In this document: one piece after another, positions 2-41,698 of the stretch
How the letters are laid out: every line of letters starts with the position of its first letter
Position numbering within the stretch: position 1 is the stretch's first letter
Assembly: GCA_040285855.1 (NCBI GenBank)
Contig: JAUFOQ010000017.1
Location: forward strand, 868,001 to 932,000
Reading direction: 5' to 3'
From: Eukaryota sp. GEM-RC1
Lineage: Eukaryota
Length of the DNA stretch: 64,000 nucleotides
Position numbers and translations under genes: made by a program
Notes under the pieces: model-generated
Told to the model about the DNA's origin: nothing
The model's database searches: none
The model's input: the letters and a program-made list of their open reading frames with translations, nothing else

Positions 2-2900
2 AATACTTCTGAACAAGAAAGTCGTTCCCGTACCATCAAAACATATATGAAACTTGTTGTAAAGCTTGCTGATAAGCATGCAGTTAACTTGTCACTTGTT
101 CTTCTTCCTTATGGAACATACAATTCATGGAGAACTAAATCCATCCACATAACGGAAGTGTCAACATCTGACTTACCAGATGATCTTAAAAAGGGTACCA
201 TGGATTTTTGCCTCAACTACAAATCAGCCGTTGCCATTGTGCTAGATGTTGATCTAGAAACTGTTCATCTCTTTCCTTTTGATGGTTCTTATGAGAAGCG
301 TGACATATCTCTTCCACTTCCTTCAACAACTTCAACTCTAAATCATCTTAAGGATCTACTCAAAGACGTTAAACGAGTTACAATTGCTCGTTCCCCTCCT
401 CCTCCTCAGCCTCAGTCTCCTCCTCTTTTACATGATTGTGACAATACTCGCTTTGACGATACTCCATCGCAAGTCGTTTTTCCTTCACCAAAACGTCGTA
501 TTGATAACTTCGCAATCAATCATATTCATTCTATTTTCTCTGAACCATCTGAAATAGTTCCTGTTCCAGTCAGTGATAATGCTAATTTATCTAAACCTAT
601 GAAACGCAAAAAACAACGTAACCCGTTGATTCTTTCTGTAGATTTAATCAGTGATCAGTTTTACATAAATTCAAAATTAAAATTTGAATTTAGTGATATT
701 GAGAAAATGTTGACAAAGGATGATAGGGAAGGTAAAACACAACTCTTGTTGAGTTCTGAACTTGATTTCATTGTGATGCTTGCATTCCAAAAATTTAAAT
801 CAAGGAGGTACAAATTCCTGCAATCTCAAGAAACTCAACAGTTGGCAGGTGATCCAATATGCTATGCCTTACATTCTGGTAAGGCTATTGTCGATACACT
901 AAAATCAGGAAAAGAATTCTTGCCCCATTATGTTTGGTGAAAGAACATGTTCCTGGTGATGCAGGATCTGGTCATTGGATTCTTATTGAATTGTTTCTAA
1001 ATGAAGCAAATGTTTTATTATTCAATATTTATGATTCTTTGGATTATTCATTAACCACTGAATTAATCGTTAATCCTTTTAGAACTGTTTATGGATGTGG
1101 GGAAACAAATCTGTTTGCAAGATTACCAGAGTATAAGGTGGACTACTATATACCTTTTGCACAGTCAACATCGTCTCTTATCTGTGGATGGATTGTCTGT
1201 TTGAATGTTACTTTAATTTTACTAGGATTAATGGTTGATGCACGTCAGGAACAAAATCAGACAAAATTAAACACTAACAGATCAAGAAAAAATCTATGTC
1301 TTGTTATGTATGATCTACTTCAGAGTGTACAACCTAGAGATGGGAGCCGGCTAAATTTAGCCGGCTCAGCCAACTAGCCGAGCCAGCCGGCTGTCCCAAA
1401 TTGGAAATATTTCCAGCTGCAAGCCGGCTGGCTCAAATAACTTTTAGCCGGCTCAAGCCGATTATTGAAATTTCATTTTTGACAGCTGAAATATTTATAA
1501 TTCGTTCATGAATTGATACAAACATAACATTGCAGGACATTAAATATTAAAACTAAAGAATTTCTATAAAAATAATCTTTATCAACATTAGCACAATAAT
1601 CAGCAGTTTACATTCTTCACATCAATTTGCAATGGACATTACTTTGGTCTCTGACAATGAAGAACCTATAGAAGTATCTCAAAGCAACTCTTCCAACGAC
1701 ATAGTTTCCTTAGAACTCCTCAAGCCTCTTCCCAAAGATATTGCTCCTTTCTTCCAACAGGCGGCCAAGAAACTCCCAAATGGTGATATAGAAGTGCGTA
1801 CTGAAACCATCGAATGTAAATTTTGTGTCTCTAAGCGCTACAAGTCATCGACAGCCACAGGTAACTTGCGTTCTCATGTGAGAAAGCACCATAATAAGCT
1901 CTATGAATCTGAAGTTCCTCCCCTTAAAAAGAGTCGACAAATAACTGAATATCTTCAGCCAACAGAACGCTCCTTCAAAAAAGATCCAAGTGGAGTAATT
2001 CCTCTCATTGTTGATCATATTCTTGCAGGAAGTTAGACATCCGCTATTAACACGCCTTCAGGAGGAGTATAGCAGTGAAAATGGAGGAAGAGAAGTGAGA
2101 AAGAAGACCAAATCCTTCAGAGCTAAGCTTAAGATCATCAAAGAATCTGTGTCCCAGAACAGTACCACAGATGAACGTTCTGACTCTGAGGATCTATCAG
2201 TTGAAAAGGAGTTAGATACGTATCTTTCTATGTTTTCGGCCGAGAATGACAATCCCTTAGATTGGTGGAGAGTAAACTCTGAAAACTTTCCTCTGATGAG
2301 CAAATTTGCAAGGGATATGTTAGCTGTTCAAGCGACCTCCGTTAGTAGTGAACGATTGTTTTCACAAACTGGTAACGTAATAACTAAGAAGCGTTCCCGG
2401 TTAGATGACACCACGGTAACTGCATTAATGTGTTTGCGGTGCTGGCTTTTGAACGAAGAAGATCAGAAAGACGATGAGTAGAGTAGCGATAATTGAAGAA
2501 TAGGGTAGAATTTATGTATAACAATAATGAACCACATAAAACAAATCTATCAAAGAAAAGACACTGAAAGCATATGCTTTGACAAAACAGTTAAACAATA
2601 AATCTACATCAAACTCATTGCGGCTGAGCCGGCTAAAGCCGGCTTGAGCCGGCTAAACTATGTTGGAAGCCATAGCCGGCTAACTAGTACCTGCAGCTGA
2701 GCCGTGAGGAAAATTTGAGCCGGCTCCCATCTATAGTACAACCTGACTTGGTGACAGAACAAAATGTAATTGATGGTTCAACAACAAAATTTGAAAACAA
2801 ATCGTCAAAGACAAAAGACGAAAATGAAGTTTTAGGGAAAAAACAGGAAAACGAAGAATTAAAACCACTGCAAGTGTTTTTGGAATCAAAAAGACTTTAA
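2..2900 (+). CDS. Ulp1/SENP-like (peptidase C48) cysteine protease, 5'-truncated by the window edge, frameshifted near 925-935 and interrupted by a hAT element
   Basis: Frame is open from base 2. Triad motifs GSGHWILI, IYDSL and AQSTSSLICGWIVC. Removing 1335-2735 plus one TSD joins ...LLQSVQP to DLVTEQNV... (ORF ending 2900) in frame. Two homopolymer +1 indels (cccc, ttt) would restore FLPIMLVKEH. Confidence 0.75.
1335..2735 (+). mobile_element. Non-autonomous (internally deleted) hAT DNA transposon
   Basis: 18-bp TIRs TAGAGATGGGAGCCGGCT / AGCCGGCTCCCATCTATA (1 mismatch), 8-bp TSD GTACAACC at 1327-1334 and 2736-2743, many subterminal GCCGGCT motifs. Confidence 0.95.
1632..2481 (+). pseudogene. 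hAT transposase remnant: BED zinc finger joined to the C-terminal dimerization domain, catalytic core deleted
   Basis: CKFC...LRSHVRKHH (BED) in 1632-2036; PLDWWR...LAVQATSVSSERLFS...RSRL (hATC) in 2008-2481. Confidence 0.9.
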
Positions 2901-3378
2901 AAAAATGAATTGACAGTGATAGAGAATAAATAGTACAATATAGATGTATTTATAATTTTGTAAAACATATAAGAATAACACAGCAAATAAACAATAATAA
3001 TTGTACAATATTACAATGTTCAATTTTGCAGTTTGAACTGTGTCAGACGTAGTCTGAATACCAATGTTTTGTTACATAGTTATTACACACAGAACAATCC
3101 GTGAATTTCATCCACCTGAAATCTGACAGAAATTTGTTACAGATTTAGTATGTCAGAAAATGTGACATATAAAACCAGACCAATTTGTTACATATTCAGT
3201 GTAGATGTGGTAGCATAGTTTATGTGAAAAATCATGGTATAAATTATAAATTTAGACCAGATAAACCCAATCAATCAACTTCTTCGTTGATTGATAAATA
3301 AAGAAAAAATTGTAATAAAGACTTATAATTATTATATTGTTCTACATAATAAAAAAACATCAATGAATTATTGAAAGA

Positions 3379-3860
3379 CTATATAAAATCAAGTGATTGC
3401 AATCCTGAGGGTCTAAAGAAGTGTTTTTCCAAATTTTGCTTTTTGTCCTTATCACGGATAGAATCGTAAAAGACAACGATTTTTTGATTATGTTCATACA
3501 AATTGTAAACATGTCTGGCATCATTTGGCAGATCAAAGATTATACAAAGATCAGCCCGAACAGAATGGTTAACCGCTAATTGAGTAGTACTGATCAATAA
3601 AACAGGATCAGTCTGTTCATCGAATATTTTCAGACTTGATGTAATCTTTCGTGGTTTTCCACCCTCTAGTGTCACAACTTTAAAAGCAACCTCAGAAACA
3701 AGCCTTGAAAGTTTCCTTACTTTTTCAACTGAATCAGTTGTAATTACAACTTTTGTAACTCAAATATAGTCAACAAATGCTTCACCTTGTTGATTTTTTC
3801 ATCAACACTCCATCTAGATGAAAGAAACTGAAGTCTTTTCGTCGTATCAATGTCGATGGG
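3379..3860 (-). other. Degenerate DEAD-box (eIF4A-like) helicase C-terminal domain at the polyprotein C-terminus
   Basis: EKINKVKHLL...VITTDSVEKVRKL...FKVVTLEGG...PVLLISTTQLA...LCIIFDLPND follows the HELICc layout, but motifs V and VI (ARGxD, HRxGR) are lost. Confidence 0.55.
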
Positions 3861-6615
3861 ATGAGCACTTTCTTCAACAACAGGAATCTCAACTTGTTGA
3901 ACTTGTTGAGTCGATTGAACAGTTAAAGCATGTAGTTCAAGACTTCGTTGTTCGTAAATATTTTTTGAATCACAAGAGCGAACATCATGAACTTCTAATG
4001 GTACACCAGAAATACCAATCACAGATAATGCTGAAAGCATTAACAGTGTTCCATCCTTTTCAGAACAATGAAAGAATTTAAATCATTGCAAAAATCGATT
4101 TTTAACAGTTGACCTGTTAACTCACCACTTGAACAATCAATAATAAATTGAATCTGTTTCTTTGGTAGTTTCAAACCGAAACCAACACAGAACCCAAATT
4201 CCGTGATGTACATTATTGTGTCATAATGCTTAACATACACTGCATCTATAATTCTGTCATCTTTGTGACAGGAGCAAAATTCCCATACAGGTTGTTCACC
4301 AAGCAGCTCCCTTTCATACAAGTCTAACTTTCGGATGGAACAAGTGCCGACAACTAGAACGAAATCGTCATAGCACTTCAAACTTTTGAATTCTTCGTCA
4401 CGATCAATTTCAGACATGTTTAAATCCATTAATGTTGATAATTCTGAACAATTAACACAATTTTTTCATCTTCCTGCACAAAAATGATCAACAACAGAGT
4501 CTTCGTTGCGACAACAAAACAATTTTTGCAGCAGCCATGTCAATACATTGAGAATCAAAACTGTCTCTGGCCAACGGCAACGGTAATACTTGTCGAATAG
4601 TCTTTCGTTTGTCTGTTTTTGGCTTGTATTGAATCATAAATATGGGCCCTTCAAAAGCAATCAGTATGGCCTGGTAAAGCAATTGATGATGAAGTGCAAA
4701 CATAGTCAATTGATTGTCAAATGGTTTACACTGTGGTCTATCATCATCAATACTGCGACTGAACCTTCGGAGTTCTTTATCAATGTTGTAGACTACAAAT
4801 CGTAATGTAACATTCAACACAGGAGTAGGAGTAGGAGTAATAGCAGAAAAAAATTCTGTATGGAGAGTTTCGACAACGTCGTTGTCTATATTCAACGTTC
4901 CAATGGCAATTTTTGATTCAAATGAAAAAACAACATAGAAAGTTCTCATTTCTTCACGTGTAAAATTTAAGATTTGAACATTTTGTCCTAAATATTTAGC
5001 AGTATGAGAAGAGGCAGTACAATACGACTTAGTCCAAGATGACAAATCCAAAGTACTTGTAGCTACTGGTGACTGGGGCAATGCAGTAGTTTCACTAATC
5101 ATGGGTTCAGGAAGGTCAGCGTTTTCGGGGATCATAGGTTCTTCAACCTTGTGTTGGGCTAAGGTAATTTCAGAATTTACTACTTCATTAAGTGTAGTAC
5201 ATGATGATGCACATAAAGGACACGCAGGATCAAAGCACATCAACAGGTCCTGTTCATCATTGACTTGGAAATTTAGTAACTGGAAATGATGTTTCCTTCC
5301 ATTCACATAATCCACGGTAACTGGTGGACTGTTACTTTTCAGTAAGTTGAAATCAAGAATAATAATGTTGTCATACCACGATTTCAACACAGTTATGGGA
5401 ACCTCACCTTGTTCCGTTAAATATACCAAAATACGTAATCGATTGATACATCCAAAGGTGGATTCGATTGGTAACTCATGATAAGGCCAGTAAACATTCC
5501 AGACACGTTTTACCTCAAAAGATCCATGAATATCCAGCTCATTACTGTATGCAATTAATTGTTTGAACCTCGAATCTTGACAATGCATTGGTGTACCAAC
5601 CTTGATAGATGGCTTTGCCATTTCCGAAACCAAATTGATATTGAAGTTCATGAGCCATACGATGAACAAGTATTGAAAAGAAGAAGGAATATGAGACAAG
5701 AATTGTGGAAACTTATCACCAACAGAAATACCATTATGATAACCTAGATCTGTAGGTACAGGGAACAGTGATTTGGCACATTTAACTTCCTTGGACCACT
5801 CATTATCAATACGAGTGTATTGAGTCAAATCACTACAAGGACTTGACATAATGTCGAAAGTTAATTTAATAGAATTTCTTGGTATATGCAAATGTACGAT
5901 ATTACCCCACTGTAACAATTGGTTGTACATGTTCCAAAATTCTGGGCCATTGACAACTTTCAATGCCATTGATAAATTGAATCGTGATTTGATAATGAAT
6001 CTATACCAATCAAGATGGAACGTAAGAGAAAAATTTTTTAATGAATCAAGAGTTCCACGGCACTTGTTGACAAACAGTAGATTTTCAATTTCAGTTGTAT
6101 TCTCTGAATGCAACATAACAACAGTGCTTTCGGTTTCACCTGGAGCTAGATCTGAAGTAATTTTAACTTTTGAACATAATGTCTCTGAAGGAGTACTGTC
6201 ATCATCACTGTCATTAACTTTTAGAGATTTGGAAGATTTGACAATTTTTGTTCATCAAACAATTTCTTTATAAAGCTGTTAAATTTTTTCCATTGACATA
6301 ACCTTCCAACTTCAACCTAACTGAGAATGAATTGTCTACTACAGTTGAATGGAATGACTTATTGGGATAAGAAGCCACAATGGCTTGAAAGAGAGACGTC
6401 GTTGAATTTGGAGATTCAAAAGAGAAGAGAAGATTGTTGATTCATTTCGAAACTTATTGAGTGTAACTTCAGAAGGATTTGATATGAAATTGACAAGTTT
6501 TAGAGCAATGCCTTCCAATGATATTAATTGATTTTTGAGATGAGTATTAGAATCTTCCATATCCACGAAACGTGAAACTAAAGATCTTAGTTCATTTAAA
6601 TATCGCTCTAGTTTT

Positions 6616-8513
6616 TCAAAAAACTAATTTAGATAAATTCTTAAGGGCTTGATCATTAAGGGTTTGATCACGTGTTGGGACAATATCCAGATTTTTAATA
6701 AATTCGCCACATAAAATGTAATGAACCAAGGATAATTTGAAAAACATGTCTGAACGTACAACTTTAGATTCTTCAATAGTAGAGAGTTGTTTGAGTAAAG
6801 GAATCGATTGTGAAAAGGTATACAAATCGTAAAATGACATAAAAGTTGTACGAGAGCAACGAATGAACGACATAGAATTGATACCCGCAAGAAGAATCAA
6901 TCCAGGACACAGGTAATTGTTTGTTAAACAGAAAAATAAAAACTTGAAGTTGTAGAATGAAATATTGGCATTGGTGCAAATCTTTCCGAGATAAGTAAGG
7001 GGAGAATTTAGTTGGTTTTTTGAAAGAACATTAGTGCGGAAAAGAACATCAACCGAAGACATGATGTTCTCGCTAGAAGGAACATCAGGCAGTTGACTGA
7101 TGAAAAATTCAGGGGGATTTGGACGATTACTGATTAAAAATTGAGGATTTTCAGCGATCTGTTTGATTGTTAACAATGGCTCAATCAACGAACAATTTAG
7201 AATTTCTGGTTCGTCGAAATGCAATCTCGAAGTTCCATTCGGATATAAGTTTGTCTGCACAAGACGTAACGAAAGTCCAGGAGAATTTCTTCCAGCACGA
7301 CCAGAGCGCTGGTCCAAAGAAGCAATGGAGCAATGATGAGTGTCGAGAAGGTCATCTGCATCAGTTTGCTTTGACAAACCACAGTCAATGACAAATTTGA
7401 CCCCATCAATAGTCAAGGAAGATTCTGCTATATTGGTAGCAATGACAATTTTAAATTGTTTTTTCGCTGGTTTAGCCACAGCTGCATCTTGTTGGACTGA
7501 ATCCAGACTTGAATACAACGGATACACACCTGGCTTCTCAGAAGAAGCTGGGATGTATAGACCACCAGATCCACTTTTTTCTGACTCTCATACTCATTCT
7601 CAATAATATTACTGAGAGTTGTAATTTCTGGACTTCCAGGAAGAAACACGAGCAAAGTAAATCCTGTACATTCTGGTTCAAACTGAAAAAGCTTCTGAGA
7701 CAGGGAGTAATAACAGAGACATAGTCGGGCTAACGCTCTGAAATTGATACTTTTATATGAAAGAGGATTACAGTGTTGAGTGAAATAGTCGTAGTATGAG
7801 TTCACATTGAAGACAAAATAAGTGTAAATATCAATAAAATGATCGTTGAAAACCTGTTGAAGTGTAGGTTCAAATATCGGAGTTATCACAAGTTTTGATA
7901 TTAAGGGACTATAATGAAATTCATTTTGACGAACAAAATTCACATCAAGGACAATCAGTGGATTGGTTCTTCCAGCTGCATGGATAGTATAGGAGGGTTC
8001 GGTATCTAAATAATTTCCTTGTGTAAGGTAATTAAAACAAGGATTAGGTTTGTCCATAGTTGCCGAACAGATTACCACTCTCAATTTTGAATCAGTTTGG
8101 GAAATTATTCTCATTTGTGCTAATAAAATGTCAATGTCACATTTTCTTTCATGAACTTCATCCACCATGATAGTTGCAAATCGAGACAGATTGCTATTAT
8201 TTGTCAGAAATTTAGAAGTGAAGGCAGCGGTTTGAACTTCGATAAATCTTGGTGAATGTACTGGAATGTTCGTATTCTTGTTGCCTGTTCGGTATCCAGA
8301 CAGAGGAAAATCACTATGACATAAATCATTGATAAAATCGGAGAGTTTTGTGGCTGGTAGAACTCTAGGTTGACACACAATGATTGGTTTCAAAGTAACC
8401 ATAACCACAACAACACCAGTTAAAACAGATTTCCCGGAACCTGTTTGACCAGAAACAATAAACGGAATAATATTGTTGTCTTTGACATGATTTTGACCAA
8501 CAACACGAAACAA
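6616..8513 (-). other. DEAH/RHA-family RNA helicase domain (frameshifted near 7530-7590)
   Basis: GQTGSGKS, QPRVLPA, DEVHER, SAT, LVFLPG, ATNIAESSLTIDGVKFVIDCG, QRSGRAGR. Confidence 0.92.
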
Positions 8514-9672
8514 TTGTTAAAAAGTGTCTTTTCCTTCATTAACAAATGCAATACGGCAGTTACGTGCTTTTGAAATCAACTGAAAGCAAGAAAACACCAA
8601 GTGGAAGTAGGCGTCATTACTGTCAACTGTATTATTCCACTGTTCAGTTAGTGTCAAAATTTGAAGAATTTGTGTTAGTAAATCACTTTCGCGGACATAA
8701 GATTTCAAATGTGCTAATTTAGAGCATACTTTAGGAAAATCAATTGATGTAAATGTACACGTTGGTTCCTCTGGTGAAGTCACAGTGCTTGGGAAATTGT
8801 AAACATAGCGGGGAGGTCGTCTCCATTGAAGATAATGATCTAACAACATCTTGTAATCACTATGATTTGACGCCAACCATGACAATGAGACTAAGTATTC
8901 CATTGCCTGGAAACAGAAAGACATTAAAGAGAGATCTTTGTTTTCTTTTTTTTGTTCATAATGGTAATGGGCACAAAATGACAGTTGGAACATGAGCATA
9001 CTCATAGTTTCAATTTTGTTTTCGAAAAAATCTTGATATACAGTAAACTGATGTCGGTAAACTTCTTTCCGTTGTACAACTTGTTTAGTTTCAGGGTCTT
9101 TAATTTCGACAATGCGGCTTTCTTCATCTGTATCCACAAAAGTATAGTGCTCGAGAAAATGACAAAAGTTAAAAAAATCTTGAAAGTAATTGAGAAGTGT
9201 AGGACGAATCTCTGATATTATTAAAATCATCCCGCATAATACTAAGAGAAGTTTGATTATATAGATCATCAAATCCGTCATCATTTAAAGGATCGTCTGT
9301 AGGATCGTCAGTATGTTCAAAATCAGAATCTTTGACATCAACATCAGGTATTTTGGGGGCTTCTTTTTCAATTAATTCAATAACATGAGCAATATCAAAG
9401 ATTAACATTTTGAGTTTATAAGTAGCTTTTGACTTTGCAAACTTTTCAATCACTTTTTGGTTTTCTTTGTACATTTCCAAAGTAAATTGATTATTCGTAC
9501 GATCATACACTTGAAGGTTGAGTTTTTTCTCCTCCACAACAAATTGCAGATGAAGCATTGTTAATAAAATGTCCAGCATAACCTCAGGACGTACCAAAAC
9601 TTTAGGGTTGATATTTTGATACAAGGATGTGATACTTAATGAAACATCACTAAGTCTAAAAGTTTGGAAGGG

Positions 9673-9714
9673 ACATTCATTATAACTGTGACCAGGAAGA
9701 AGGCAGAAGAGACA
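9673..9714 (-). other. CCHC zinc knuckle
   Basis: CLFCLLPGHSYNEC = C-x2-C-x4-H-x4-C. Confidence 0.8.
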
Positions 9715-10419
9715 TGGAGCAATAAAAAGGCAAAACGATTCACGAAAAGAAGGTTGTTTTTGAGGACAATGGGGAGGCATCTCATATTTGAATCCAAGAG
9801 GCATAATCGGTAAACTCACAGTAGATTCTCGATTAGGGTCACACAATTGACACCAATATTTATGGAGGGATTCCAACGCTCCATCATAACTGAGCAAGTA
9901 ATGATTAGCATCTTGTTGACATTCAATCAACTCCGATTCATAGTGTTTGGCCATGATGTAATTTTCAATTCTCCAATTACTTGGCGTGTCACCAGGTTTG
10001 CAACACTCTTGTATAATTTGGGCCAGGAACGAGCGTCGTGATTCATTGTCTGGATTGGGAATGACATCTGGAGCGAGATCAGTTAAGTTTTCGGATTCAT
10101 CTATAAAAACATGATTCATACATGAACAAACTTGGAAACCAGGTGTTCTTCCAGATCTTAGCACTGGATGGGCAAAAGTTTCATGTGGAATACGGCAGTA
10201 ACGATGCAATATGCCCATGTGGTATTTAGTTCTTTGATTATGTTTCTTTTGTTTTAGCTGAGTTTCTTCTGTTAGAGTTTCTTCTGTTGGCGGTTCTTCT
10301 GTTGGCAGTTCTTGTGTTGGCAATTCTTCTGGTAGCGTTTCTGGCAGAGATGGAGGAGGCGATGGTGACACAGAAGTTCTTCTGGGTCTCTTTACTTCTG
10401 GGGATGGTAAACGATCATG

Positions 10420-10470
10420 GGGACCTGGATTCTGCTCAACGTCTCCATCGATAGAGAGATCACGTTTCCA
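10420..10470 (-). other. 2A-like ribosomal skipping (StopGo) peptide
   Basis: WKRDLSIDGDVEQNPG|P matches the D(V/I)ExNPG|P consensus exactly, with a typical upstream WxRDL. Confidence 0.88.
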
Positions 10471-10471
10471 T

Positions 10472-11401
10472 GATGTGGACGAGAGGATAGAGCACAGAAT
10501 AAGCGGAGACGACATCTTAGGACGAGGAGGGAAGCACGTATCCACACATTTCTTCAACCCACCATCCATATCCCGTGACCGTGCTATGGAAACAGTGTTT
10601 GGATGATGAGATGAAGCAATGGCGGATGTGGACGAGAGGATAGAGCACAGAATAAGCGGAGACGACATCTTAGGACGAGGAGGGAAGCACGTATCCACAC
10701 ATTTCTTCAACCCACCATCCATATCCCGTGACCGTGCTATGGAAACAGTGTTTGGATGATGAGATGAAGCAATGGCGGATGTGGACGAGAGGATAGAGCA
10801 CAGAATAAGCAGAGACGACATCTTAGGACGAGGAGGGAAGCACGTATCCACACATTTCTTCAACCCACCATCCATATCCCGTGACCGTGCTATGGAAACA
10901 GTGTTTGGATGATGAGATGAAGCAATGGCGGATGTGGACGAGAGGATAGATCACAGAATAAGCGGAGACGACATCTTAGGACGAGGAGGGAAGCACGTAT
11001 CCACACATTTCTTCAACCCACTATCCATATCCCGTGACCGTGCTATGGAAACAGTGTTTGGATGATGAGATGAAGCAATGGCGGATGTGGACGAGAGGAT
11101 AGAGCACAGAATAAGCGGAGACGACATCTTAGGACGAGGAGGGAAGCACGTATCCACACATTTCTTCAACCCACCATCCATATCCCGTGACCGTGCTATG
11201 GAAACAGTGTTTGGATGATGAGATGAAGCAATGGCGGATGTGGACGAGAGGATAGAGCACAGAATAAGCGGAGACGACATCTTAGGACGAGGAGGGAAGC
11301 ACCTATCCACACATTTCTTCAACCCACCATCCATATCCCGTGACCGTGCTATGGAAACAGTGTTTGGATGATGAGATGAAGCAATGGCGGATGTGGACGA
11401 G
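10472..11401. repeat. Six near-identical 153-bp (51-aa) tandem repeats
   Basis: Unit start GATGTGGACGAG at 10472, 10625, 10778, 10931, 11084, 11237 and a partial at 11390; only a few substitutions. Confidence 0.97.
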
Positions 11402-11511
11402 GCGAGGGGTGTTAGCAGTATAATAGAAGACATTGGAGTGGGAAAATTATGGAGCTGTAAACAACTAAATTCCATTTGTCTTTATTAAAAACATTTAAAT
11501 AAACACAAATA

Positions 11512-11941
11512 CTAGAATTCAATATCATTAAAGCAACAATCATTGCCATTAAAACTCACATCAGCTTTTTCTTCATAAAAAACACTGAGAGCTAATAGAG
11601 CTTTTGAAATCATGATAGGAATTGTTTTAAATATTGTAAAAACAATACGATTCAACCAAAATTTGAAATCAAATTTCTTGTTCATTCATTTTTGACCACT
11701 TTCTCAAAATCAGAGAGAAAACAAAGAGCATCTCTACCAAGTCGACCATAAATTGAAATTGCAAAGGACATAATTTGTACTCAACATGTCTAATATGTTT
11801 GAGAGCAGTCAGTGGTTCCTCATATTTGTTTCTCTTGTATTGTTCTGAAGAATTCAGTGGAGAAACTTCATTTTTAGCATCCTTGAATGCACTTTTTTTG
11901 CAAACATCCACAGTAATCACATCAAAAACATCTGTAAACAA
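11512..11941 (-). CDS. Small hypothetical protein (frameshifted)
   Basis: ORF 11669-11941 plus a coding-like tail ...ALLALSVFYEEKADVSFNGNDCCFNDIEF* ending at 11512. Confidence 0.3.
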
Positions 11942-12060
11942 CTATACTGTACAGATAGAACAAGGAATTCTCATGACTTCACAAATACATTTACAAGGAT
12001 CGTTTTGTGTACACTTTTATTTTCTCTTAGATACAAGTAGAACAATTTATTACTGTGCGT

Positions 12061-13768
12061 TTATTCTAAATATTGTAAAGAATGATGATGATAAAGTAAA
12101 ACATAGCCATTTAAAGAAATCTCAGTTAATACTGTCTGTTTGTCTACACCTTTCTTGCAATCACTATTGGTATCATGTAACCACCAAGAACCTTCTTTTT
12201 CCTTTGCATATGTCACACAGTGACCGTCAGCAAGGGAATCGTAATGACAGATCGCAGACAGCAGTCTGTATGTGTATTTTTCTTCAACACTACTTTTGGT
12301 CTTGGTTGACACTTTGGCGGTTCAGGTTCGACTGGTACTTCTTTCCCAATCACTACCTCTAACAAAATGCTGACTCCCACACTTTCTTTCATTTTCATTA
12401 GAAATGTCAAAGACAGACAATTCTTCTGATGTTGGATAATGAGACAATGTGTAAATGTCCTTAAGTGGCAGTTGTGAGTTGATTTCATTGGTAGGGGAAA
12501 ACTCAATCGATTCTGAACCCAATTGTGCTTCAGAAGACAGGAATAGATAGAGTGATAGATTTGAAGAAATAGTAACTGGTTGAGGATGTCCAGTCAGTCT
12601 AATGATAAGAGCTTTTGGAAGAGAAGCAAAAGTTTCAGTAATTTCTGATTTTTGTTCAGGACAAGTAGCACAAATTATTTCTTTTCGAAAAGGTAGATGA
12701 GCTTGCAACAATGATTCGAGATCGGTTGGTCTAGAAGGATACCGCCTTTGGATACTTTCCTTGTTAATTTCCAAGGCGAAGTGAATTTTAGATGTCGGAT
12801 CAGTCCCACACCAAGAACATTTTGTTGTTGTTTTAATACAGAAACAAAATGCATTAACAGCACAAGAATGCTTTAATTTTTGAGTTATCAACAATTGATC
12901 TAAATCTTGCTGAAGTGATGATTTGACATCTAACTGAGTCTGAACTTTTTTTGGTGATGGTTTCTCATCTAAATCATATCCATAATATTGGAAGTCTGTA
13001 GTATCAGTTTCTTCTGATTCAGACTGTGGTTCAAATTTTTGACAAAGAGTGTAATTCATCATTTGATGAAGATGGCAAGGTGGTGCGGAATTCCTTGTCA
13101 AGTGTTTTTAAAAGTTTGGCAAGAAAATTGAAAGGATCGTGTTGACCCGCCGCAAACACAGGATAAATGTCAGCGATTTGCGCACGAACACCTTCAATAT
13201 CTTTCGTATAAAAACAATTGAAGAGAGGAGTAGCAGAAGTATCAAAATCTAGTTCTTTGAAATGATTTACATTGAGTTCGAAGAAACGTTCAATGTGACG
13301 TATAATAAAATGGATAACTGAATAGACATAACAACAATCAGATGAAGTAGAAATTGAAGGAGTAGTAGTTTTAACAGGAATGGCAAGAGCCTCGTTAACT
13401 GTTTTAGTCAAACTGGAAAGAGAAGAAGGGGATACAATCAGGTTATGAGATGAGAGGGTGGTTTTTACGATGAAAGATATCACGTCGCTAATACACTGTG
13501 TATCTTCAAGGGGAGTGATTGCACGAAGATTAGAGGACGATGCTAAGCTGAAAAGGAACTTTGTTTGTGCAACGTCTGATGTTACAAGAACGAGATTGAA
13601 ATGGTATTGAATATGTCCATTATACACTACGACAATGAAGAAGTCGCCCGCAGTGTCTTGGACGATGACAATTTCAACATCTGTAACTTCCGCAGGAATG
13701 TCATTTACGAAGTCTAGTTGCATCTGTTGTTTGGGAAAACGTTGGCGGACACGGAATGATGTTGACAT
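12061..13768 (-). CDS. Ubiquitin-specific protease (USP, peptidase C19), frameshifted into four pieces
   Basis: Cys box CCYVYSVIHF, GQHDPFNFL, fingers CSWC/CATC, LPKALIIRL, His box YRLLSAICHYDSLADGHCVTY, WWLHD. Confidence 0.82.
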
Positions 13769-13940
13769 GTTTGTACAGAGAGGAAAATTTATGTCCTAGT
13801 CTATTATTACAACAAAGATTCCATTTTTGACTTTCAATCAATACAATAGGGTGGGTTTATTCATTCCGTGATGAATTTGTCATTCACGAGGATTAATGTT
13901 TTACTATAACTAACTAATACAGGATTAATAAAGGAACCAG

Positions 13941-15493
13941 TGAAGTAGAAATTGAAGGAGTAGTAGTTTTAACAGGAATGGCAAGAGCCTCGTTAACTGT
14001 TTTAGTCAAACTGGAAAGAGAAGAAGGGTTAGGCAAAATCAGGTCTTGACACTTAATTCGTGGAAGTCGCCATTGATTATTCGTACGATCATACACTTGA
14101 AGGTTGAGTTTTTGAGAAAGTTCCCACACTAAGAATTTAAGTGTCGGCTGCCACAAACCTAAGAAATCTTACCAACATAAACGTGTTCAAAAATTTGTTC
14201 ACTAATCAGTCTGTTGCTGGGTTGAGTACAAACAAAGGATGGCCCAGAACAATGAGCCTTAACTTTATTAATTATCTTGTGACTGGTTCTTTTCATGATG
14301 AGAACTACAGATTTACTTGAAGATACTAAAACAATTTTTTAGTAACGAAAAAGTTTAAATCAAAAACATTCTGTATGAAGAGTTTCGACAACGTCGTTGT
14401 CTATATTCAACGTTCCAATGGCAAGTTTTTGATTCATGTGAAAATCTGGATCACCATATTGGAGAGCAAATCTGTGGACCAAGTTTTGTTCACTTCGTTC
14501 TTTTCTTGAATACTGGGTAAGGCGTCTACGTCTAAAAAATTTCTCTTCATAGAAACAAGCCTTGAAAGTTTTTGGAACTGAATCAGTTGTAATTAAAACT
14601 TTTTATAACTCAAATACAACTGCACTTGTTGATAAACAGTAGATTTTCAACATCCACTGCCGTAGCTTTGATGATGCAGCCTCCCTATCCTTATCTAACT
14701 CAACTCGAGACTGACTCCATTGCAGGGTTTCGGGCTCAGTTGAGTTTAGATAGTCCCAGTATGAAAGGCCTTATTACTTTATGCAAAATTCTGTCTATTA
14801 ACAGGACAGTGATTGATCTGGATATCTCCCCCAACTTAATTGATATTGAAAGTCACATTTTCATTTATGTTTTTCACCAACGAATTTTGTTCCCAAAGAA
14901 GCGGGGGTGGCAGGATTTGAAGAGGTGATGTATATGACATAAAGACCATTTACATCTGTTGATCTACTCTGCTTCTGAATTGTACAGAGGAACGAAGATA
15001 TACCACCAAGCTATTGCTCAAGATGTTCCCATTGTGACTTTGAGAAGAAGAGCAGAGAGAAATGAAACAGAGGGAACGAAGAAAGTTATACAGTATGGCC
15101 GATGCACGATTACTGATTAAAAATTGAGGATTTTCAGCGATCTGTTTGATTGTTAACAATGGCTCAATCACGATGGAACGAAGAAAGTTGTTATACAGTA
15201 TGGCCAAGACAAATCACAAGACAACCATACTTCTCAGAGGACAATCTTCAAGTGGTTCAATGCAACGTTAAGCGGATCTACGAAACATACAATGCAAGAG
15301 GCATTCAGCAAGAATCAGTCAGAAATCCAGTGTTTTCAGCAGAGGAGATAACTGAAGGAGCATCATCACAGAAGAAGTGGATAAAGAGAAAACCACGGAA
15401 CAACACATTCCTTCAACCCACCATCCAAATCCCGTGACCGTGCAATGGAAACAGTATCTGGATGGCGGAATTGAGAAATGGCGGATGTGGACG
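13941..15493. repeat. Patchwork of short direct copies of neighbouring genes
   Basis: 13941-14028=13343-13430; 14072-14113=9486-9527; 14368-14436~4853-4920; 14551-14616~3694-3766; 14622-14650~6060-6088; 15106-15170=7123-7187; 15401-15493~part of the 153-bp repeat. Confidence 0.92.
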
Positions 15494-15933
15494 CAAAGCA
15501 AAGCAATGAGTGCAACCACGATACACCAGATGACAACCCAACTCATCTTGCCCACTTGTCGAGTGCAGGAGACAAATTGACAAGAAGAGCGGAATTGCCA
15601 TCTATGTAAAGAGGTCACTTCTCATAGATATACGTGGCAGCAAGCACATATCGTGACCAAAACTTACTTTTGGCATCATCACAATGTCTATAGTTAGAAA
15701 GATGGAGGATCATACGCATGTCAAGAGAGAAGAAAAGTGAAATTGCAGTATTCATTTTTGGAGTCTTGTCTTGTTTGTCTACAGATAGCAGACATCTTTT
15801 CTGTCTTCGGATATCTCCTACACTTCAAATACAACATTTTTGTACTTACTTACTTGACATCATTCATTAATTAATACATCAACAATGTTATTTTCAATGC
15901 TCTTGTGTATGACAACATTGACAATGCATTGAA

Positions 15934-17320
15934 CTAGAACGTATATGTTGATTTCGTGTTAACAAGGAAGAGACTTGAAACAAAAGAAGAACGGGATGCT
16001 TTATTGATATCTAAACAAAGAAAACTACAATAATGATCTATAAAAACAAATTTAAATCGCATATGGTGTATGAGGCTAGCAGTATCACGAGTAGTATCAC
16101 CAGCAATTCGAATAGCTCTTTCAATTACTGGGGTGGTGGTTTCACGAAGGGCGGAAGCAACTGCACTAAAGATGAGTTTTAAATCGCATATGGTGTATGA
16201 GGCTAGCAGTATCACGAGTAGTATCACCAGCAATTCGAATAGCTCTTTCAATTACTGGGGTTCACGAAGGGCGGAAGCAACTGCACTAAAGATGAGTTCA
16301 AGTTCCTTCTCGTCAAGTGAATGCTTAGAGTTTGCTAAAAGAGTAGTCACTGCCTCATGACCAGTCTTGACAACGCTGTCAACGTCAACAATCTTCTTAG
16401 GTTGAGGTTCAGTTATCTAGAATTAGATCAGTGGATTCATGTATGAAAGAAAAGTGAACCTAGACCTTAGACTTCACTTCACATCTTCGGAGTCCTATAC
16501 AAGACCATGCACACTTATCTCATTCAATAAACAACATCTTCTTTATTTTGTTCTACTTGCCAGTTGTTTCTGCAAAACAGGTCCTACATTTAACTTCTTT
16601 ATCTCTAACTTCTTTCTCTTATCGCTGCCTGAGATAGGCTTTTCCTTTCCACACTGATGTCCCAAAGTCTTGGAAACAAGTGATCCTAGGGAGGATTGAA
16701 TTTCATCGTATTTAGTAGGAGTGGAAGGAGCGGATTCGGTGGGAGAGTTACGAGAGGACTTTGTGAGAGGTTCTGGAGTTGTGGCTTCTTTGCTCACAAC
16801 TTTAGCTTCTTTAAGGTGCTTGTTCTTTTCTTAACAATATGAGTTCTTTCATGAATAACATTAGGAGCAATTGAATAAAACTCAGAAAGATCTTCGTTTT
16901 CTTCAGCATTCATACCATACACTTTCTTAAAACGTGAAGAAATGTCTGGTACTTTTGCGCCTTGGGAAGCTAAATATTGAGTTCTAGAATTAATAAAGTG
17001 AACAATATTCTCAAAAAGTCTTCCTTAGACTGTACCAAGTCTGAGAGGAATTCATCATTGTTGGTACTTATAGAAAGTCCATCGGTTGAATTGTCACGAG
17101 GTCGTGAAATTAGAATATAATCCCCATTGGGACCGAGCTGAACACTTTTACCATCCACCTTTGTCGATGTATAACTAAAGACGTTATAGACATCCTGGTG
17201 CTTGTTCATATTCTTTCTTCGGAAAGCGTTAGAGCGTCGTTTCTTGTTATAATTGACAGACATAGACGTTGCATCATCTGAAGACTGAAATGAGAGTGAA
17301 TAAAGACATACAACTGACAT
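15934..17320 (-). pseudogene. Fragmented hypothetical ORF(s)
   Basis: Run of short minus-strand ORFs (16970-17320, 16543-16797, 15934-16251); no recognisable motif. Confidence 0.3.
16051..16298. repeat. Tandem duplication of ~125 bp
   Basis: TTTAAATCGCATATGG...CTAAAGATGAGTT occurs twice; the second copy lacks 7 bp. Confidence 0.93.
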
Positions 17321-17362
17321 TGGATTTTTGCCGGAAAAATATTTTCCTTCACTATCAATTCA

Positions 17363-18161
17363 ATGACCAACAATATCTTACAAGATTGTTTGGCAACATT
17401 CTTTGAAACATATCTCATTCAACAAATACAAGCATGTGGGTGTATCAAATGCATGGCCATAGGAGAACTTAACTCTCTTGACAAATTGACATCACTTTTG
17501 TCTCACATACATCGTATGAGCTTTCATCCAAATCCTGAAGATGACTTAACTTCTTTATCTCCTTTACTTTCAATCTGCTCACATATACTAGCGAAATGTA
17601 AGACGATCGATTCCATTGTGGAACGTGGTATTCAAAATTGTTTGTTGTTGTTGTAGTAGTGTAGATGTTGAGGGAATGCTAAATTGTTTTTCTGTCCTGT
17701 TATTTGTACTTGCAAATTCTTTACAAGCAATGTATAACACGTTGTTGATCACAAAGTGTGAAAGAATATTGTTTCTCAATGATATTTCCGAATTTCTTTG
17801 GAGTATTAATGATCGACAGTGTCTAGTTAAAGTATTGACAGTTTTGCTACTATCCTTGAATGGTGATGAATGTAGGGAATTGTTACTTACTGAAGTATTC
17901 CAAGAGTTTACAGGATGTTCTGAAACATTGACAGATATAATACTTATGTGTGAGAACAGTCAAGATGAGGAGTTTGTTGACATGTCCGTTGTTGTTAAAA
18001 GGGTGTCTTCGTTGTTCAACTTGTTTGATGTGAATGAGATTTGTGAATGTGATGCAGATTGTGACAAGGAGTTTGTGAGTTTCATTGATTCATTGCTTAA
18101 GTATAAAGAACAGTTGTATTTTATAACAAATAGCAATAAGGAGATTACATTCGACATATAG
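17363..18161 (+). CDS. Hypothetical Cys-containing protein (frameshifted)
   Basis: Overlapping ORFs 17363-17656 and 17616-18161 with coding-like composition. Confidence 0.4.
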
Positions 18162-18618
18162 AGAACACAAATCGGGGTGTTCTACTTCTACGAGGAACAT
18201 CAGCTGTGTAGGGAGGAGGAGGAATTACCTTGGATTTAGTGAAACAGAAGCAGAAGGTACCTTGTCTTCAGATAGAATGGCATCAACGAGGGCTAGGAGA
18301 GAGAACTCATGTTTGATTTGTAAGATCAAGGGGGTGACTTTAAAAGACTCGGATATGAGTTAGAGTGCTCGAAAGTAGTCCAATGACACGATACATTGCT
18401 CTATTTCATCAAGATCGATCCCAACACCAACATCACGTTTTACATAGACATATAATTTGACATATGAGACGATAGAAAGCTCATCATGATAGAACAAGCT
18501 TCTAAGAATTATGTACGACCAGCATTTTCCATAAAGTGGAGGTAGATATATAAATTATAGTGAAAGGAAAGTTTCCCTGCACAATCTGCATCTTAAACAT
18601 CACCACTTCACACACTCA

Positions 18619-20068
18619 ATGTCCATTATCAACACACTTACAGACGAACAGGCTCAGGTCTTCCAAGCTATTACTCATGCAAGACCTTCTAAGCGTCGAA
18701 ATTTCTTCATTACTGGTGGTGCCGGATCGGGCAAGTCTTACCTACTGTACTGTCTTAAACAGTGGTGGTCTAATGCGGGTTCCAAGCTAATGAGACCCAA
18801 TGGCCATGTCTTTTTTACTGCTACTACTGGTGTTGCTTCCACTGTCTTTGGTGGTCAAACCCTACACTCTCTCTTTGGTTATAATTTTATCCGTAATGAA
18901 AAACCAATATCTGATGTCATTCGCTCTATGCCTTCGAGTGTTAAGTCTGTTTTACGAACTATTAGTGCTCGAAATTCAATGCTTGTTATTGATGAAATTT
19001 CAATGTTGACTGCTGAATTATTCAACAGAGCCTCTGATATATTTAAAAATTTACTGAAGTCTCAGTTACCATTTGGTGGACTTCAAGTTGTAATATTTGG
19101 TGATTTTTTGCAACTTGCACCAATTGTAAAATCTGATTCAAACACACGTACTGTTCTTCAACTTTCAGACTTTACGTTTTCATCACAGTCTTGGAAGGAC
19201 TTGAATTTAAATTTTATTGAATTATCTGGAAGTATCCGACAACAAGGTGATGTCAATTTTTATAATTTTTTGAATGAAATACGTCTCGGACTTTTTGATG
19301 ACTATATGAAACATATTTTATTGAAACATAAGTCATTAGCCAAAAATATTGAAAGTCCAACCAAATTATTTGCTAGAAACAAGGATGTCGCCGACGAAAA
19401 TTTAAAGCAATTTGAATTATTATGTGAACAAGGGAATGAAAATGTTGAATTTCATTCCCTCGATAAGTTCAATGAAAACTTAATTAAATCAGAAATTGTT
19501 AAAAGTTGGGCATTTGGTAAGCCTAATGAGGAACAAATGGAAAAGGCTTTTGATTTAAATGTAAAAAAAATTATCAAGTAGGCTAAACGATTTTGCCGAA
19601 CAAAAATTTCACTGTGTCGTCGGGGGTTTGGTAATGTTTACCCAAAACAAACCAGATCAGGGCCTAGTAAATGGGTCAAAAGGCAAAATTATTGATTTCT
19701 CTGAAAGTTCACATTTCATTAATGTAAGATTCGGGAGGGACGAAGAACCAATCAAAATTATTCCAACTAAATTTGAAATTGAGGTGTTGAATGAGAAGAA
19801 AAAGCCTGTAATTATAGCATCCCGATTGCAATATCCTCTTCGTCCTTGTTGGGCAATAACAGTCCATAGATCTCAGGGTCTAACAATTGAAGGAATTGAA
19901 GTTTCCTTAAATTTTTGGGAGTATGCCCAATTGTACGTCACATTGAGTCGAGTGAAGAACTGGAACTCAATTAAAATTTTAGATATTTCTTCTAGATTTC
20001 CTAAACCAAGGATGGATCTATATCAGTGGTATTATTCCACTTTTCACCCCCCCTCGACCGGTTACTAA
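18619..20068 (+). CDS. PIF1-family 5'-3' DNA helicase (frameshifted near 19560-19625)
   Basis: EQAQVF, FFITGGAGSGKS, TATTGVAS...GGQTLHS, IDEISM, PFGGLQVVIFGDFLQLAPI, IRQQGD, GLVNGSKG, QYPLRPCWAITVHRSQGLTI, YVTLSRV. Confidence 0.95.
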
Positions 20069-20081
20069 ACCTCTTTATCCT

Positions 20082-21067
20082 TTGCCATTAGAAGATGAAA
20101 GAATTGTTAGAAATTGGCCTTCTGTGTTGAAAACTTTTGATGAATTTTCGTCCAATATTATTTCTATTGTTGGTGAAAGTATGGAAACTGTTGATGTTCT
20201 TGATCCAGTCAATGAAGAAATTGAGGAAGATTTGGTGGAAGATGTTCCAAAAATTCAAAATTTGAATACCACTTCTGATTCAGTTTTAGAATTACTCGAT
20301 AATGAAGTTGTTGTCTCTGGAAGTGATAGTGGAGATGATGAAACTGATGATGATGACGATGCGTCGTCTAGTATGAATGATTTTGTTGTGAATGATGACG
20401 ATGAGTGTTTCAATAATCAAAGTATAAGTGCCATCAATTCTGATTTAATTTTTCACAAACCTGTGCCAAAACTGAAAAAACAACAGTTACTACTTTGCCT
20501 AAATTGAGACCAAATCTATTGTCTCGAAATACTCTCAAACCAAATTCGAATTTACCTAGTTTGAAATTATCAAAAAAAGTTACAGATCATGAGGACACTG
20601 AATCTATCAACAGAATAACAAATTCTCTTGGTCTTCAGACAGATTTTGAAAACAACTTGAACAATACTCATAGTATTGCAATGCAGACAGAAACAAAGGT
20701 TCTCACAATTGTCCACAATATTGTACCACTGCACTGGAACCAAAATGATACAACATCAGATTGTCTTCCAAATATGAAATTGAAACTTCAGTTGTTAAAA
20801 GATTTAAATTTATTGATGGCGGAAATTTTGAGTTTTCATTTGAATGATAGGGACAAGTACTTTAATGTGTTGTCGTTGACCAATACTTTTGTTATGTCGA
20901 TATTAGATTTAAATGATGAAGTGATGTGTGATGAACAGTGTTTAGGAATATTGGATGAATTTCGTGAAGTGATGTGTGAGTATTGTTGTGGGATTGGATA
21001 TAAGGAGTCGTTTTCGTTGGCTGTGATGTTTGCGAGGGTGATGGGGGGATATAGTAGTGTTAGTTAA
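20082..21067 (+). CDS. Acidic/low-complexity extension, probably the C-terminal part of the PIF1 gene or a separate ORF
   Basis: ORFs 20082-20507 and 20495-21067 follow directly, with breaks near homopolymers. Confidence 0.4.
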
Positions 21068-21165
21068 GTTTGATAAACTGAGGTTGTATATTTTATTGGT
21101 TGTGTTTAAAAAAAATATCAATGTCTAGGTCAACAATTCATTACACATACGACACTTTCATTACA

Positions 21166-21518
21166 AATGTTGTAGTTACAAATGTTGTATCACCAAATGT
21201 TGTAGTTACAAATGTTGTATCACCAAATGTTGTAGTTACAAATGTTGTAGTTACAAATGTTGTAGTTACAAATGTTGTAGTTACAAATGTTGTAGTTACA
21301 AATGTTGTATCACCAAATGTTGTAGTTACAAATGTTGTAGTTACAAATGTTGTATCACCAAATGTTGTATCACCAAATGTTGTAGTTACAAATGTTGTAT
21401 CACCAAATGTTGTAGTTACAAATGTGGTATCACCAAATGTTGTAGTTACAAATGTTGTATCACCAATTGTTGTAGTTACAAATGTTGTATCACCAAATGT
21501 TGTCATTACAAATGTTGT
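21166..21518. repeat. 15-bp minisatellite, 23 units plus a partial, two main variants
   Basis: AATGTTGTAGTTACA and AATGTTGTATCACCA interspersed. Confidence 0.97.
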
Positions 21519-21918
21519 ACATGTAGTTATAACTTGGTGTCTTTGTGTCTTCTGATGAATGAAGCTTCATGGACTTGATGTCGTTGACCTTAGTCTCATT
21601 CCAGATAGCATCTGATAGAATTGAAAAATGCAGTCAAAAACGACTGAAGACACAGCAGTGTATTACACGATCAGAGTTGTAACAAACCAGCAGAGTTGTA
21701 GCAAACCTTAGTGTTTTCCTTTGGAGGATAAGATGTCAATGTGATGTACGTGTAGTAGGATGGTTGTACAACGTTGAGTTTATTCATGACATGGTTGAAC
21801 ACGGTTCACAAGTCTAAGAACGAACACCTGCAAACACGTCTCTATCTTGAAAGAAGCTCAACACTGGATATCAAACGATGTATGGAATCCATCAAAGAAG
21901 GTATAAGTGAATCAGTTT

Positions 21919-21988
21919 GGGGATATGTGGTTATGGGGTGAAGTGTTTTTGGGGTAAAATGATTTTGGGGACATGGAGTATGCACCCC
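21919..21988. other. Four GGGG runs at 16-bp period ending in GCACCCC; candidate element terminus / G-quadruplex motif
   Basis: GGGG at 21919, 21935, 21951 and 21967. Confidence 0.45.
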
Positions 21989-22040
21989 AAATGAATTCAA
22001 CAGAAGTGTTTTAATTGAAATTCTAAAAAAGTCACTTGAA

Positions 22041-41652: not shown

Positions 41653-41698
41653 TAAATCTTAGAATTTTACATCTTCATAACTGTGACTTATCCTTTCC

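Follow-up and report, generated by a model that had tools for sequence, protein, structure and literature searches.

The genome of the free-living anaerobic skoliomonad protist Eukaryota sp. GEM-RC1 contains a block of 22 kb or more that is repeated at about 8–10 loci on different contigs and brings together genes for a PIF1 helicase, a DEAH helicase, a USP deubiquitinase and an Ulp1/C48-like protease. One copy occupies the left part of the window, the 64,000-nt stretch of DNA analysed here, and its left end falls outside it. With a probability of about one half, we consider the block to be one giant, cargo-rich cut-and-paste DNA transposon with inverted ends, represented here by a decaying copy whose transposase is predicted to lie left of the window or to come from another copy. 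It is most like Mutator/Rehavkus elements, with its superfamily unproven. The window copy comprises the following features:

2–2900, plus strand: Ulp1/C48-like protease gene (roughly 505 amino acids in intact paralogues)
1335–2735, plus strand: nested, internally deleted hAT transposon, with terminal inverted repeats (TIRs), target-site duplication (TSD) and empty sites
3379–4465, minus strand: gene in three frames, with weak Helicase_C similarity (E 8.6e-4, below the cut-off) in its C-terminal part
4488–6289, minus strand: ORF542, which matches no known family (8 loci on 7 contigs)
6342–11475, minus strand: gene of leader repeats, 2A motif, zinc knuckle and DEAH/RHA helicase, all covered by one model, P0150 (1,629 amino acids)
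9673–9714, minus strand: CCHC zinc knuckle (C-x2-C-x4-H-x4-C), kept in 8 of 8 models
10420–10470, minus strand: 2A/StopGo motif WKRDLSIDGDVEQNPG/P, followed by NLS-like KRPRR
10472–11401, minus strand: six 153-bp repeats (6.1 copies) with a 51-residue unit, Met followed by a hydrophobic stretch
11487–11602, no strand: 116-bp piece, a small repeat that recurs at 53588–53702 (95%)
12061–13768, minus strand: gene for a USP (C19) deubiquitinase, showing Cys, Gln-like and His boxes
13941–15493, no strand: scrambled fragment array of about 1.5 kb, with seven pieces that match minus-strand genes of the element itself
15934–17320, minus strand: ORF17k, a gene of no known family (roughly 300–340 amino acids in paralogues)
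17363–18161, plus strand: two overlapping frames of no known family, from the open reading frame list
18619–20635, plus strand: stand-alone PIF1 helicase gene with an acidic tail (PF05970, E 1.3e-32)
21161–21519, no strand: 15-bp minisatellite, 23.9 copies in a tandem-repeat scan
21916–22023, no strand: likely right terminus, four GGGG runs with a 16-bp period, the end at 22023 being a guess

The PIF1, DEAH, USP and Ulp1 genes each have 5–16 paralogues on other contigs of the same organism, mostly 94–100% identical to the window copy (minimum 92%). The Ulp1 family numbers 16; the DEAH family comprises 14 proteins, or 9 loci once halves are paired, with P0154, a match to the window's own DEAH half, counted as self. 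There are 11 USP proteins (8 loci on 7 contigs), 8 ORF542 loci after removal of P0147 (39 amino acids, unrelated-looking) from the cluster, 8 ORF17k members on 6 contigs and 5 PIF1 members on 4. Genes near the ends outnumber inner genes, save for PIF1 (5 versus 8–9 for the inner genes) despite its near-end position. Most families have at most two copies per contig; the exceptions are one contig with three Ulp1 copies and one with five PIF1 genes of a sister family. Contig co-occupancy of four gene families reaches 30 against 15.6–18 expected (p ~0.0003) under a null model in which placement is proportional to contig size alone.

Several fused or read-through models join these genes directly, although all such linkage evidence consists of predicted protein models, in which false introns are possible. 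P0179 follows Ulp1 to base 469 and continues in a tail matching 20059–20090, with the stop codon in place; its junction has one 2-nt gap and the microhomology CC(A/C)TCG, and 0 of 200 shuffles did as well. P0187 joins Ulp1, as far as 505, with the LLLCLN-stop of 20487–20507 (as good in 1 of 100 shuffles), a match that is weak on its own after multiple testing, roughly 85 tails having been screened. Because these two paralogous models fuse the Ulp1 start straight to the PIF1 3′ region across 3000–3300, the suggestion of an earlier, sequence-only reading that two elements meet there is disfavoured. P0207 reads from DEAH into ORF542 and P0204 is a fusion of both; ORF542 is likely to continue the DEAH gene at the C terminus, for a predicted total of about 2,300 amino acids. 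In P0151, DEAH is cut near 7300 and followed by 10 of 12 residues of plus-strand 21978–22013 in inverted orientation (best of 100 shuffles, only 7 of 12). This join, seen in one model, points to inverted repeats at the termini and would place the right end at 22013 or further right. The contig of P0151 holds two DEAH and two USP genes but one ORF542, as expected from the DEAH cut. The block genes thus behave as one unit. The contrary pattern, single-copy genes that never occur together, does not hold, because the genes occur in multiple dispersed copies and are linked to one another. In a locus-tag adjacency test none of 830 pairs fell within 10 tags; reading this as a sign of unlinked genes was rejected, since complementary halves of one split gene lie 174–697 tags apart on the same contig and the tags are therefore non-positional.

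The Ulp1 gene starts 9 codons left of window base 1 and ends with 54 codons at 2736–2897; in the window an A run near 910 carries a one-base shift, and the hAT insertion splits the gene. The protein matches neither the Pfam C48 HMM nor PDB, and its single-sequence AF2 model (pLDDT 33.5) has no Foldseek matches; 24 of 30 ESM Atlas matches are Peptidase_C48 clusters (score 0.94). It carries His, Asp, Gln and Cys in CE-clan order, a putative His-Asp-Cys triad plus oxyanion Gln, and we class it as a predicted Ulp1/C48 protease. None of the 13 models listed that keep the window copy's start shows a transposase fusion. The inserted element belongs to the hAT superfamily, with which it shares short TIRs (18 bp, 17 of 18 matching), an 8-bp TSD (GTACAACC), a BED finger and a dimerisation domain; it differs only in its deleted catalytic core and is otherwise ordinary. 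Five paralogues read through the empty site, and the first ORF of the hAT has 5 cluster members.

The DEAH helicase region (6616–8516) matches PF00270 and PF00271, with DHX36 and DHX29 as nearest solved relatives (E 6e-27). Alignment with DHX36 locates motifs I (GQTGSGKS), II (DEVHER), III (SAT), V (ATNIAESSLT) and VI (QRSGRAGR), which together with an HA2-like region mark a predicted DEAH/RHA helicase. P0208 is a DEAH relative at 36% identity, and a metagenome scan returned 14 remote, generic helicase loci at 25–49% identity. The 153-bp leader repeats, of which other copies have 2–7 units, give an RNA fold z of −2.4; they and the rest of 1–23000 have no Rfam match. The 2A motif is unchanged in 8 of 8 models covering it and contains the D(V/I)ExNPG/P core, from which ribosome skipping is only predicted. 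According to the accessible parts of PMC12338488, PMC12846837, PMC3708506 and PMC4981915, the 2A sequences found in RNA viruses and in APE-type non-LTR retrotransposons have the same exact core near the N terminus, and the dual-targeting class shares a signal-like leader. Here, in contrast, the motif precedes a DEAH helicase, stands behind tandem leader repeats and has Trp at position 17 rather than the 16 of class B. ORF542 is blank in Pfam, PHROG, Atlas and AF2 (single-sequence pLDDT 30.5). In the 3379–4465 gene the middle frame is multi-copy, and a search for a longer homologue of the 4043–4465 frame found none.

The split USP frames of the window have no profile match, and full-length paralogues match PF00443 (E 2e-8 in 3 of 3). 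The His box resembles those of USP11/4/15 and the Cys box is diverged; both boxes and the profile point to a predicted C19 protease. Pieces of the neighbouring array measure 29–103 bp, are 81–100% identical to their sources and all keep the source orientation; two are closer to other copies than to the window copy. A 128-bp stretch is tandemly duplicated at the 3′ end of ORF17k, and the frames at 17363–18161 have no match by exact look-up.

The PIF1 gene, with homopolymer-run shifts near 19565 and 20050, is represented by five models that all begin at the same helicase Met and lack a Rep domain. Its sister family has 16 members at 52–59% identity; the best outside matches are stand-alone PIF1 proteins (30–40%). 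A quick tree of 52 rows, with no Helitron references, places both families on one long unplaced branch. Beyond the gene, the putative right terminus includes a small hairpin (21964–21991), and the P0151 tail matches 21978–22013; within the 64 kb, the G-run pairs of the terminus are confined to this site. The hairpin region is as stable as shuffles (z −0.13), the GGGGTAAAA motif is not enriched, and inspection found no CTRR followed by T past the hairpin. The next gene, a host gene, begins at 22041 and has a 34-nt GT-AG intron (22190–22223), read from sequence alone. The sequence-only reading had set the boundary at the minisatellite and G-runs before this intron-containing gene: those features hold, and its end at 21988 must move to at least 22013. 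It had also named the four protein families, internal repeats (here the 153-bp, 15-bp and 16-bp periodicities) and a lack of housekeeping genes, all of which our searches bear out, the last across the 25 and 61 frames scanned in 1–22050. It had overlooked the hAT element, the 2A motif and the fragment array. Its large mobile element is favoured by multi-copy, dispersed and linked genes, whereas a Helitron assignment of the PIF1 gene fails for want of a Rep fusion.

Frameshifts were rejected as proof of decay, because host genes carry the same homopolymer shifts and 7 of 13 Ulp1 models share one. The DEAH gene has such shifts and, near 10950 and 8517, two nonsense substitutions; USP has one frameshift and, near 12322, a nonsense codon. 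These three nonsense changes are better evidence for a decaying copy.

Apart from the hAT remnant, the 86 frames of 1–22050 contain no transposase, integrase, Rep or capsid family. The accessible text of PMC2836005 reports Ulp1 in Mutator and Ginger1 elements and a Trichomonas transposase with a C19 peptidase, and that of PMC6446971 describes a minisatellite before the 3′ TIR of Rehavkus and MULEs that carry extra ORFs and insert close to genes. Our block resembles Mutator-like elements (Rehavkus, VANDAL), as portrayed in those sources, in its Ulp1 domain, extra ORFs, gene-start position and deletion derivatives that retain both ends, and in its minisatellite at 21161–21519, a non-specific trait. 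It differs in its size of at least 22 kb, and neither a MULE DDE transposase nor a TIR pair nor a TSD of 8–11 bp shows within the window; an inverted end is suggested by the P0151 tail. PIF1, USP and the 2A–zinc knuckle–DEAH gene go unreported for MULEs in the same partial texts.

If the transposon reading is correct, a transposase encoded left of the window, or provided by another copy, would act on inverted ends of the kind suggested by P0151, and the element would have inserted 17–30 bp upstream of the host start codon. Internal deletions like those of P0179, P0187 and P0204 may arise through microhomology-type gap repair, with the fragment array as filler copied from the element's own and other copies during repair. 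Ulp1 and USP are predicted to remove SUMO and ubiquitin marks at repair sites or in silenced chromatin, PIF1 and the DEAH helicase to unwind the G-rich end or R-loops, and 2A to separate a nuclear RNA helicase from a repeat leader that may be bound to the ER.

We consider it unlikely that the block is instead a Helitron-like element of the rolling-circle type, its Rep separate or missing, perhaps targeted to chromosome ends like Paramecium Helitrons, with the G-run and hairpin as its right terminus. PIF1 points towards that end and a hairpin lies near it; PIF1, terminal hairpins, satellites and short-segment mosaics occur among HLE1, HLE2 and Paramecium elements, UCH domains occur in HLE2 (PMC11417382), and the Helitrons of Paramecium show left–right deletion derivatives, a mosaic satellite and satellites ahead of the right end (PMC13085455), as far as these partly accessible papers go. 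The usual limit of two copies per contig also fits. Yet all five PIF1 models lack Rep, no Helitron_like_N match lies upstream of PIF1, its outside relatives are stand-alone, no CTRR end follows the hairpin (Helitron-like ends being a 3′ hairpin plus CTRR at an AT site, or short TIRs at a TT site), the inverted end suggested by P0151 (at least 36 bp) exceeds the 11–18 nt of HLE2, and the mosaic here is built from the element's own coding sequence. That low per-contig number suits chromosome-end blocks too, as do the absence of any transposase match and the fall in copy number from Ulp1 (16) through the inner genes (8–9) to PIF1 (5) towards host genes; a subtelomeric or segmental duplication, spread by recombination without its own mobility enzyme, is nevertheless rather doubtful given three Ulp1 copies and five sister-family PIF1 genes on single contigs, end-to-end deletion models, the inverted terminal match, a sharp host-gene junction and no telomeric array anywhere in the window.

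About as doubtful is a giant eukaryotic mobile element of a class so far undescribed and without any known transposase, with two G-quadruplex-type helicases matched to a four-run G-rich end, SUMO and ubiquitin proteases that counter silencing, a viral 2A signal that splits its largest protein, and an internal array of short pieces of its own family's genes that could act as small-RNA template against competing copies. For an endogenous Polinton- or PLV-type virus with core genes left of the window or lost, which we regard as quite improbable, one can cite the 15–40 kb size, TIRs and many ORFs in both orientations of Polintons (available text of PMC6431247), along with a CE-clan protease, PIF1 and 2A as virus-like traits; but PolB, helicase-primase, packaging ATPase, integrase and capsid are unmatched within the window, DEAH and PIF1 queries find no IMG/VR relatives, and DEAH and USP are of cellular type. 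Chance accumulation of several small independent elements is hardly credible: the hAT is truly nested and the 116-bp piece recurs at 53.6 kb, but four fused or read-through models and contig co-occupancy bind the remaining genes.

The accessible text of PMC11316075 gives a repetitive fraction of 48% for Eukaryota sp. GEM-RC1, the name on the paralogue records, and its sections 6 and 17 give no description of the repeats. Our literature search found no paper on the element; its scope did not extend to Repbase reports, papers behind subscription or PMC11316075's large supplement, which may describe it. An element of 22 kb or more that has spread recently and unites PIF1, USP, Ulp1 and a DEAH helicase with a predicted 2A split would, coming from a deep metamonad lineage, broaden the known cargo of eukaryotic DNA transposons. 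It would also offer a candidate 2A found in neither viruses nor retroelements, and a natural example of an element that keeps pieces of sister copies. A further consequence, and a warning for annotation, would be that dozens of 'hypothetical proteins' in the Eukaryota sp. GEM-RC1 proteome are element genes.

The four enzymes that the sequence-only reading placed in one mobile element, PIF1, a DEAH helicase, USP and an Ulp1-like protease, are all real by profile, sequence or Atlas matches. The PIF1 protein matches PF05970 (E = 1.3e-32), and its frame has three close clusters, all from Eukaryota sp. GEM-RC1 (98, 59 and 52% identity), followed by sequences at 28–40%. The DEAH helicase keeps every core motif intact; DHX36 and DHX29 are its best solved relatives (E = 6e-27), and it favours no RHA helicase clearly over the others. 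USP matches PF00443 in three of three full paralogues (E about 2e-8), and its His box resembles that of USP11/4/15. The Ulp1-like protein has no match in Pfam or PDB sequence searches; C48 clusters make up 24 of its 30 Atlas matches (score 0.94, 168–175 shared features). Its gene, which is unfused, begins 9 codons before the left edge of the window.

Features of the candidate element
2–2900 (+): Ulp1-like gene
1335–2735: deleted hAT with 18-bp TIRs, an 8-bp duplication GTACAACC, a BED finger and a dimerisation domain
4488–6289 (−): ORF542
6342–11475 (−): DEAH gene
12061–13768 (−): USP gene
13941–15493: fragment array, seven pieces of 29–103 bp
15934–17320 (−): ORF17k
18619–20635 (+): PIF1 gene

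The block probably constitutes one dispersed unit (probability about 0.85). The remaining copies are known solely as predicted proteins on contigs of given length, and junctions were sought by comparing the tails of paralogous models with the six frames. One Ulp1 model, P0179, follows the gene to base 469 and continues in the PIF1 3′ region (20059–20090), with CC(A/C)TCG microhomology at the junction, a single gap of 2 nt and the stop kept in position, a combination matched by none of 200 shuffles. Another, P0187, follows Ulp1 to 505 and ends with six residues and the stop of 20487–20507; this match, equalled in 1 of 100 shuffles, is weak alone and lies 430 bp from the P0179 junction on the same strand. 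The two models imply internal deletions of roughly 20 kb on other contigs. A third model, P0204, joins DEAH (to 7267) to ORF542 (from 5688). For shared contigs, the DEAH, USP, ORF542 and ORF17k families score 30 against 15.6–18.0 expected (p about 0.0003; window's contig left out, null placement by length), a value that repeat-rich contigs could inflate. That the block is a chance nest of elements is accordingly very improbable. Locus-tag distance had suggested unlinked genes, since none of 830 cross-family pairs lay 10 tags or fewer apart; that test is invalid, because two halves of a split gene can share a contig with hundreds of tags between them.

Three features escaped the sequence-only reading: the deleted hAT, the unity of the frames from 11475 to 6342, and the fragment array. 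Those frames are a single gene, since P0150, a related model of 1,629 amino acids, spans them all. The gene encodes in order two to seven leader repeats, a 2A core (exact in eight of eight models) with an NLS-like KRPRR behind it, then a CCHC knuckle and finally the helicase. Another model, P0207, continues from DEAH into ORF542, so an intact product may reach about 2,300 amino acids.

The array pieces match 13343, 9486, 4847, 3694, 6060, 7120 and a 153-bp repeat; their order is scrambled, source orientation is kept throughout, and every source is a minus-strand gene of the element. Such matches arose in none of 50 shuffles, none of the pieces is drawn from the host DNA (42 kb), and about two-thirds of the array is without a match in the window. 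Three residues in one piece occur otherwise only in the repeats of P0150, and another piece has one residue specific to the model P0141, which argues for copying from other element copies rather than local assembly error. Template switching during gap repair generates filler DNA, and such filler would be the ordinary explanation of the array; a small-RNA role is speculation. A 95% copy of 11487–11602 lies at 53588–53702, and nothing else in the host part of the window derives from the element.

Five paralogous Ulp1 proteins run uninterrupted across the hAT site, an empty site that proves the insertion. Together with three nonsense substitutions (near 10950, 8517 and 12322), it suggests that the window copy is decaying. 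Homopolymer shifts in the element genes may be sequencing errors, since host genes carry them too and one is common to 7 of 13 Ulp1 models.

The ends are approached through P0151, a model in which DEAH is cut near 7300 and followed by a peptide in which 10 of 12 residues match plus-strand 21978–22013, whereas the best of 100 shuffles reached 7 of 12. Because the DEAH gene reads leftwards, the simplest reading is a deletion reaching a left end that would repeat the right end in inverted form. The contig of P0151 holds two DEAH loci, two USP loci and one ORF542 locus, as expected from such a deletion; the model would also fit an inversion or a further, oppositely oriented copy. Under the inverted-end reading, the right end would lie at or beyond 22013, and a host start codon stands at 22041. 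The tandem repeats and G runs described earlier from the sequence are present: the terminal zone has a 15-bp minisatellite, four GGGG runs with a 16-bp period, unique to this place within the window, and a small hairpin whose stability is ordinary. Short TTTGTTACA repeats at 3050–3200, in the gap where the Ulp1 gene and the minus-strand genes converge, resemble the TTACAAATGTTG unit of this minisatellite.

Among 86 frames of 1–22050, the hAT remnant was the sole trace of a mover gene. The leading account, at about even odds, is a giant element that has inverted ends and would move by cut-and-paste, mobilised by a transposase encoded outside the window. Passages in PMC2836005 place Ulp1 in Mutator and Ginger1 elements and a C19 peptidase on a Trichomonas transposase, and passages in PMC6446971 describe MULEs that acquire ORFs and insert near genes, and Rehavkus, with a minisatellite ahead of its 3′ TIR; the present element likewise has one near its right end. 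A Helitron-like element is unlikely: UCH occurs in HLE2 (passages in PMC11417382), and satellites and end-to-end derivatives occur in Paramecium Helitrons (passages in PMC13085455), whereas no Rep fusion was found here. A chromosome-end block is somewhat less probable still, and a Polinton-like element is doubtful. A literature search, with Repbase and the genome paper's large supplement outside its scope, found neither the element nor its gene set described.

A sister PIF1 family (the P0002 and P0003 clusters) has 16 members on eight other contigs, at most five on one, two of them with unexplained tails (P0132 and P0135), and is likely a second element family. Two DEAH relatives, P0206 and P0208 (75% and 36% identity), are nearer than any cellular helicase and possibly come from sister elements.

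The window is AT-rich eukaryotic DNA, and its host part includes further repeated genes.

Features of the host part
23135–25911: diverged Hsp70-like gene (PF00012, E = 2.6e-9)
27064–29778, 36418–41404, 50704–53126 and 58782–61247 (both strands): PF01612 paralogues
41687–43978 (+) and 47974–50307 (−): Sec23 genes, 98% identical
44056–44954: non-coding hAT-type element, TIR CAGGGATCGAAAAAA, 8-bp duplication GACTGTCC
46607–47313: second non-coding hAT-type element, CAGGGAT ends, likely 8-bp duplication CTGATGAT

In the Hsp70-like gene the C-terminal extension is long, and a T run carries a shift. The PF01612 (3′–5′ exonuclease domain) gene has five paralogues in both orientations (84–95% DNA identity), several broken at one common T run. 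The Sec23 pair forms an inverted repeat of 2.3 kb whose arms stand 3.9 kb apart, and a third copy of the CAGGGATCGAAAAAA TIR lies at about 44567.

According to passages of PMC11316075, this skoliomonad metamonad genome measures 33.5 Mb, of which 48% is repetitive, and falls into 21 contigs; it was assembled from Nanopore reads that short reads had helped to correct, and repeat masking preceded gene prediction. Exact look-up found 6 of 19 window frames. Clusters may miss fragments, so the copy counts are lower bounds: Ulp1 has 16 members (15 listed, nine contigs); DEAH 14 proteins at nine loci on seven contigs, counted once complementary halves had been joined in four sets as well as in the window's own gene; USP 11 proteins at eight loci (seven contigs); ORF542 eight members (seven contigs); ORF17k eight (six contigs); and PIF1 five (four contigs). 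Because paralogue identities to the window are mostly 94–100%, the spread of the element is recent.
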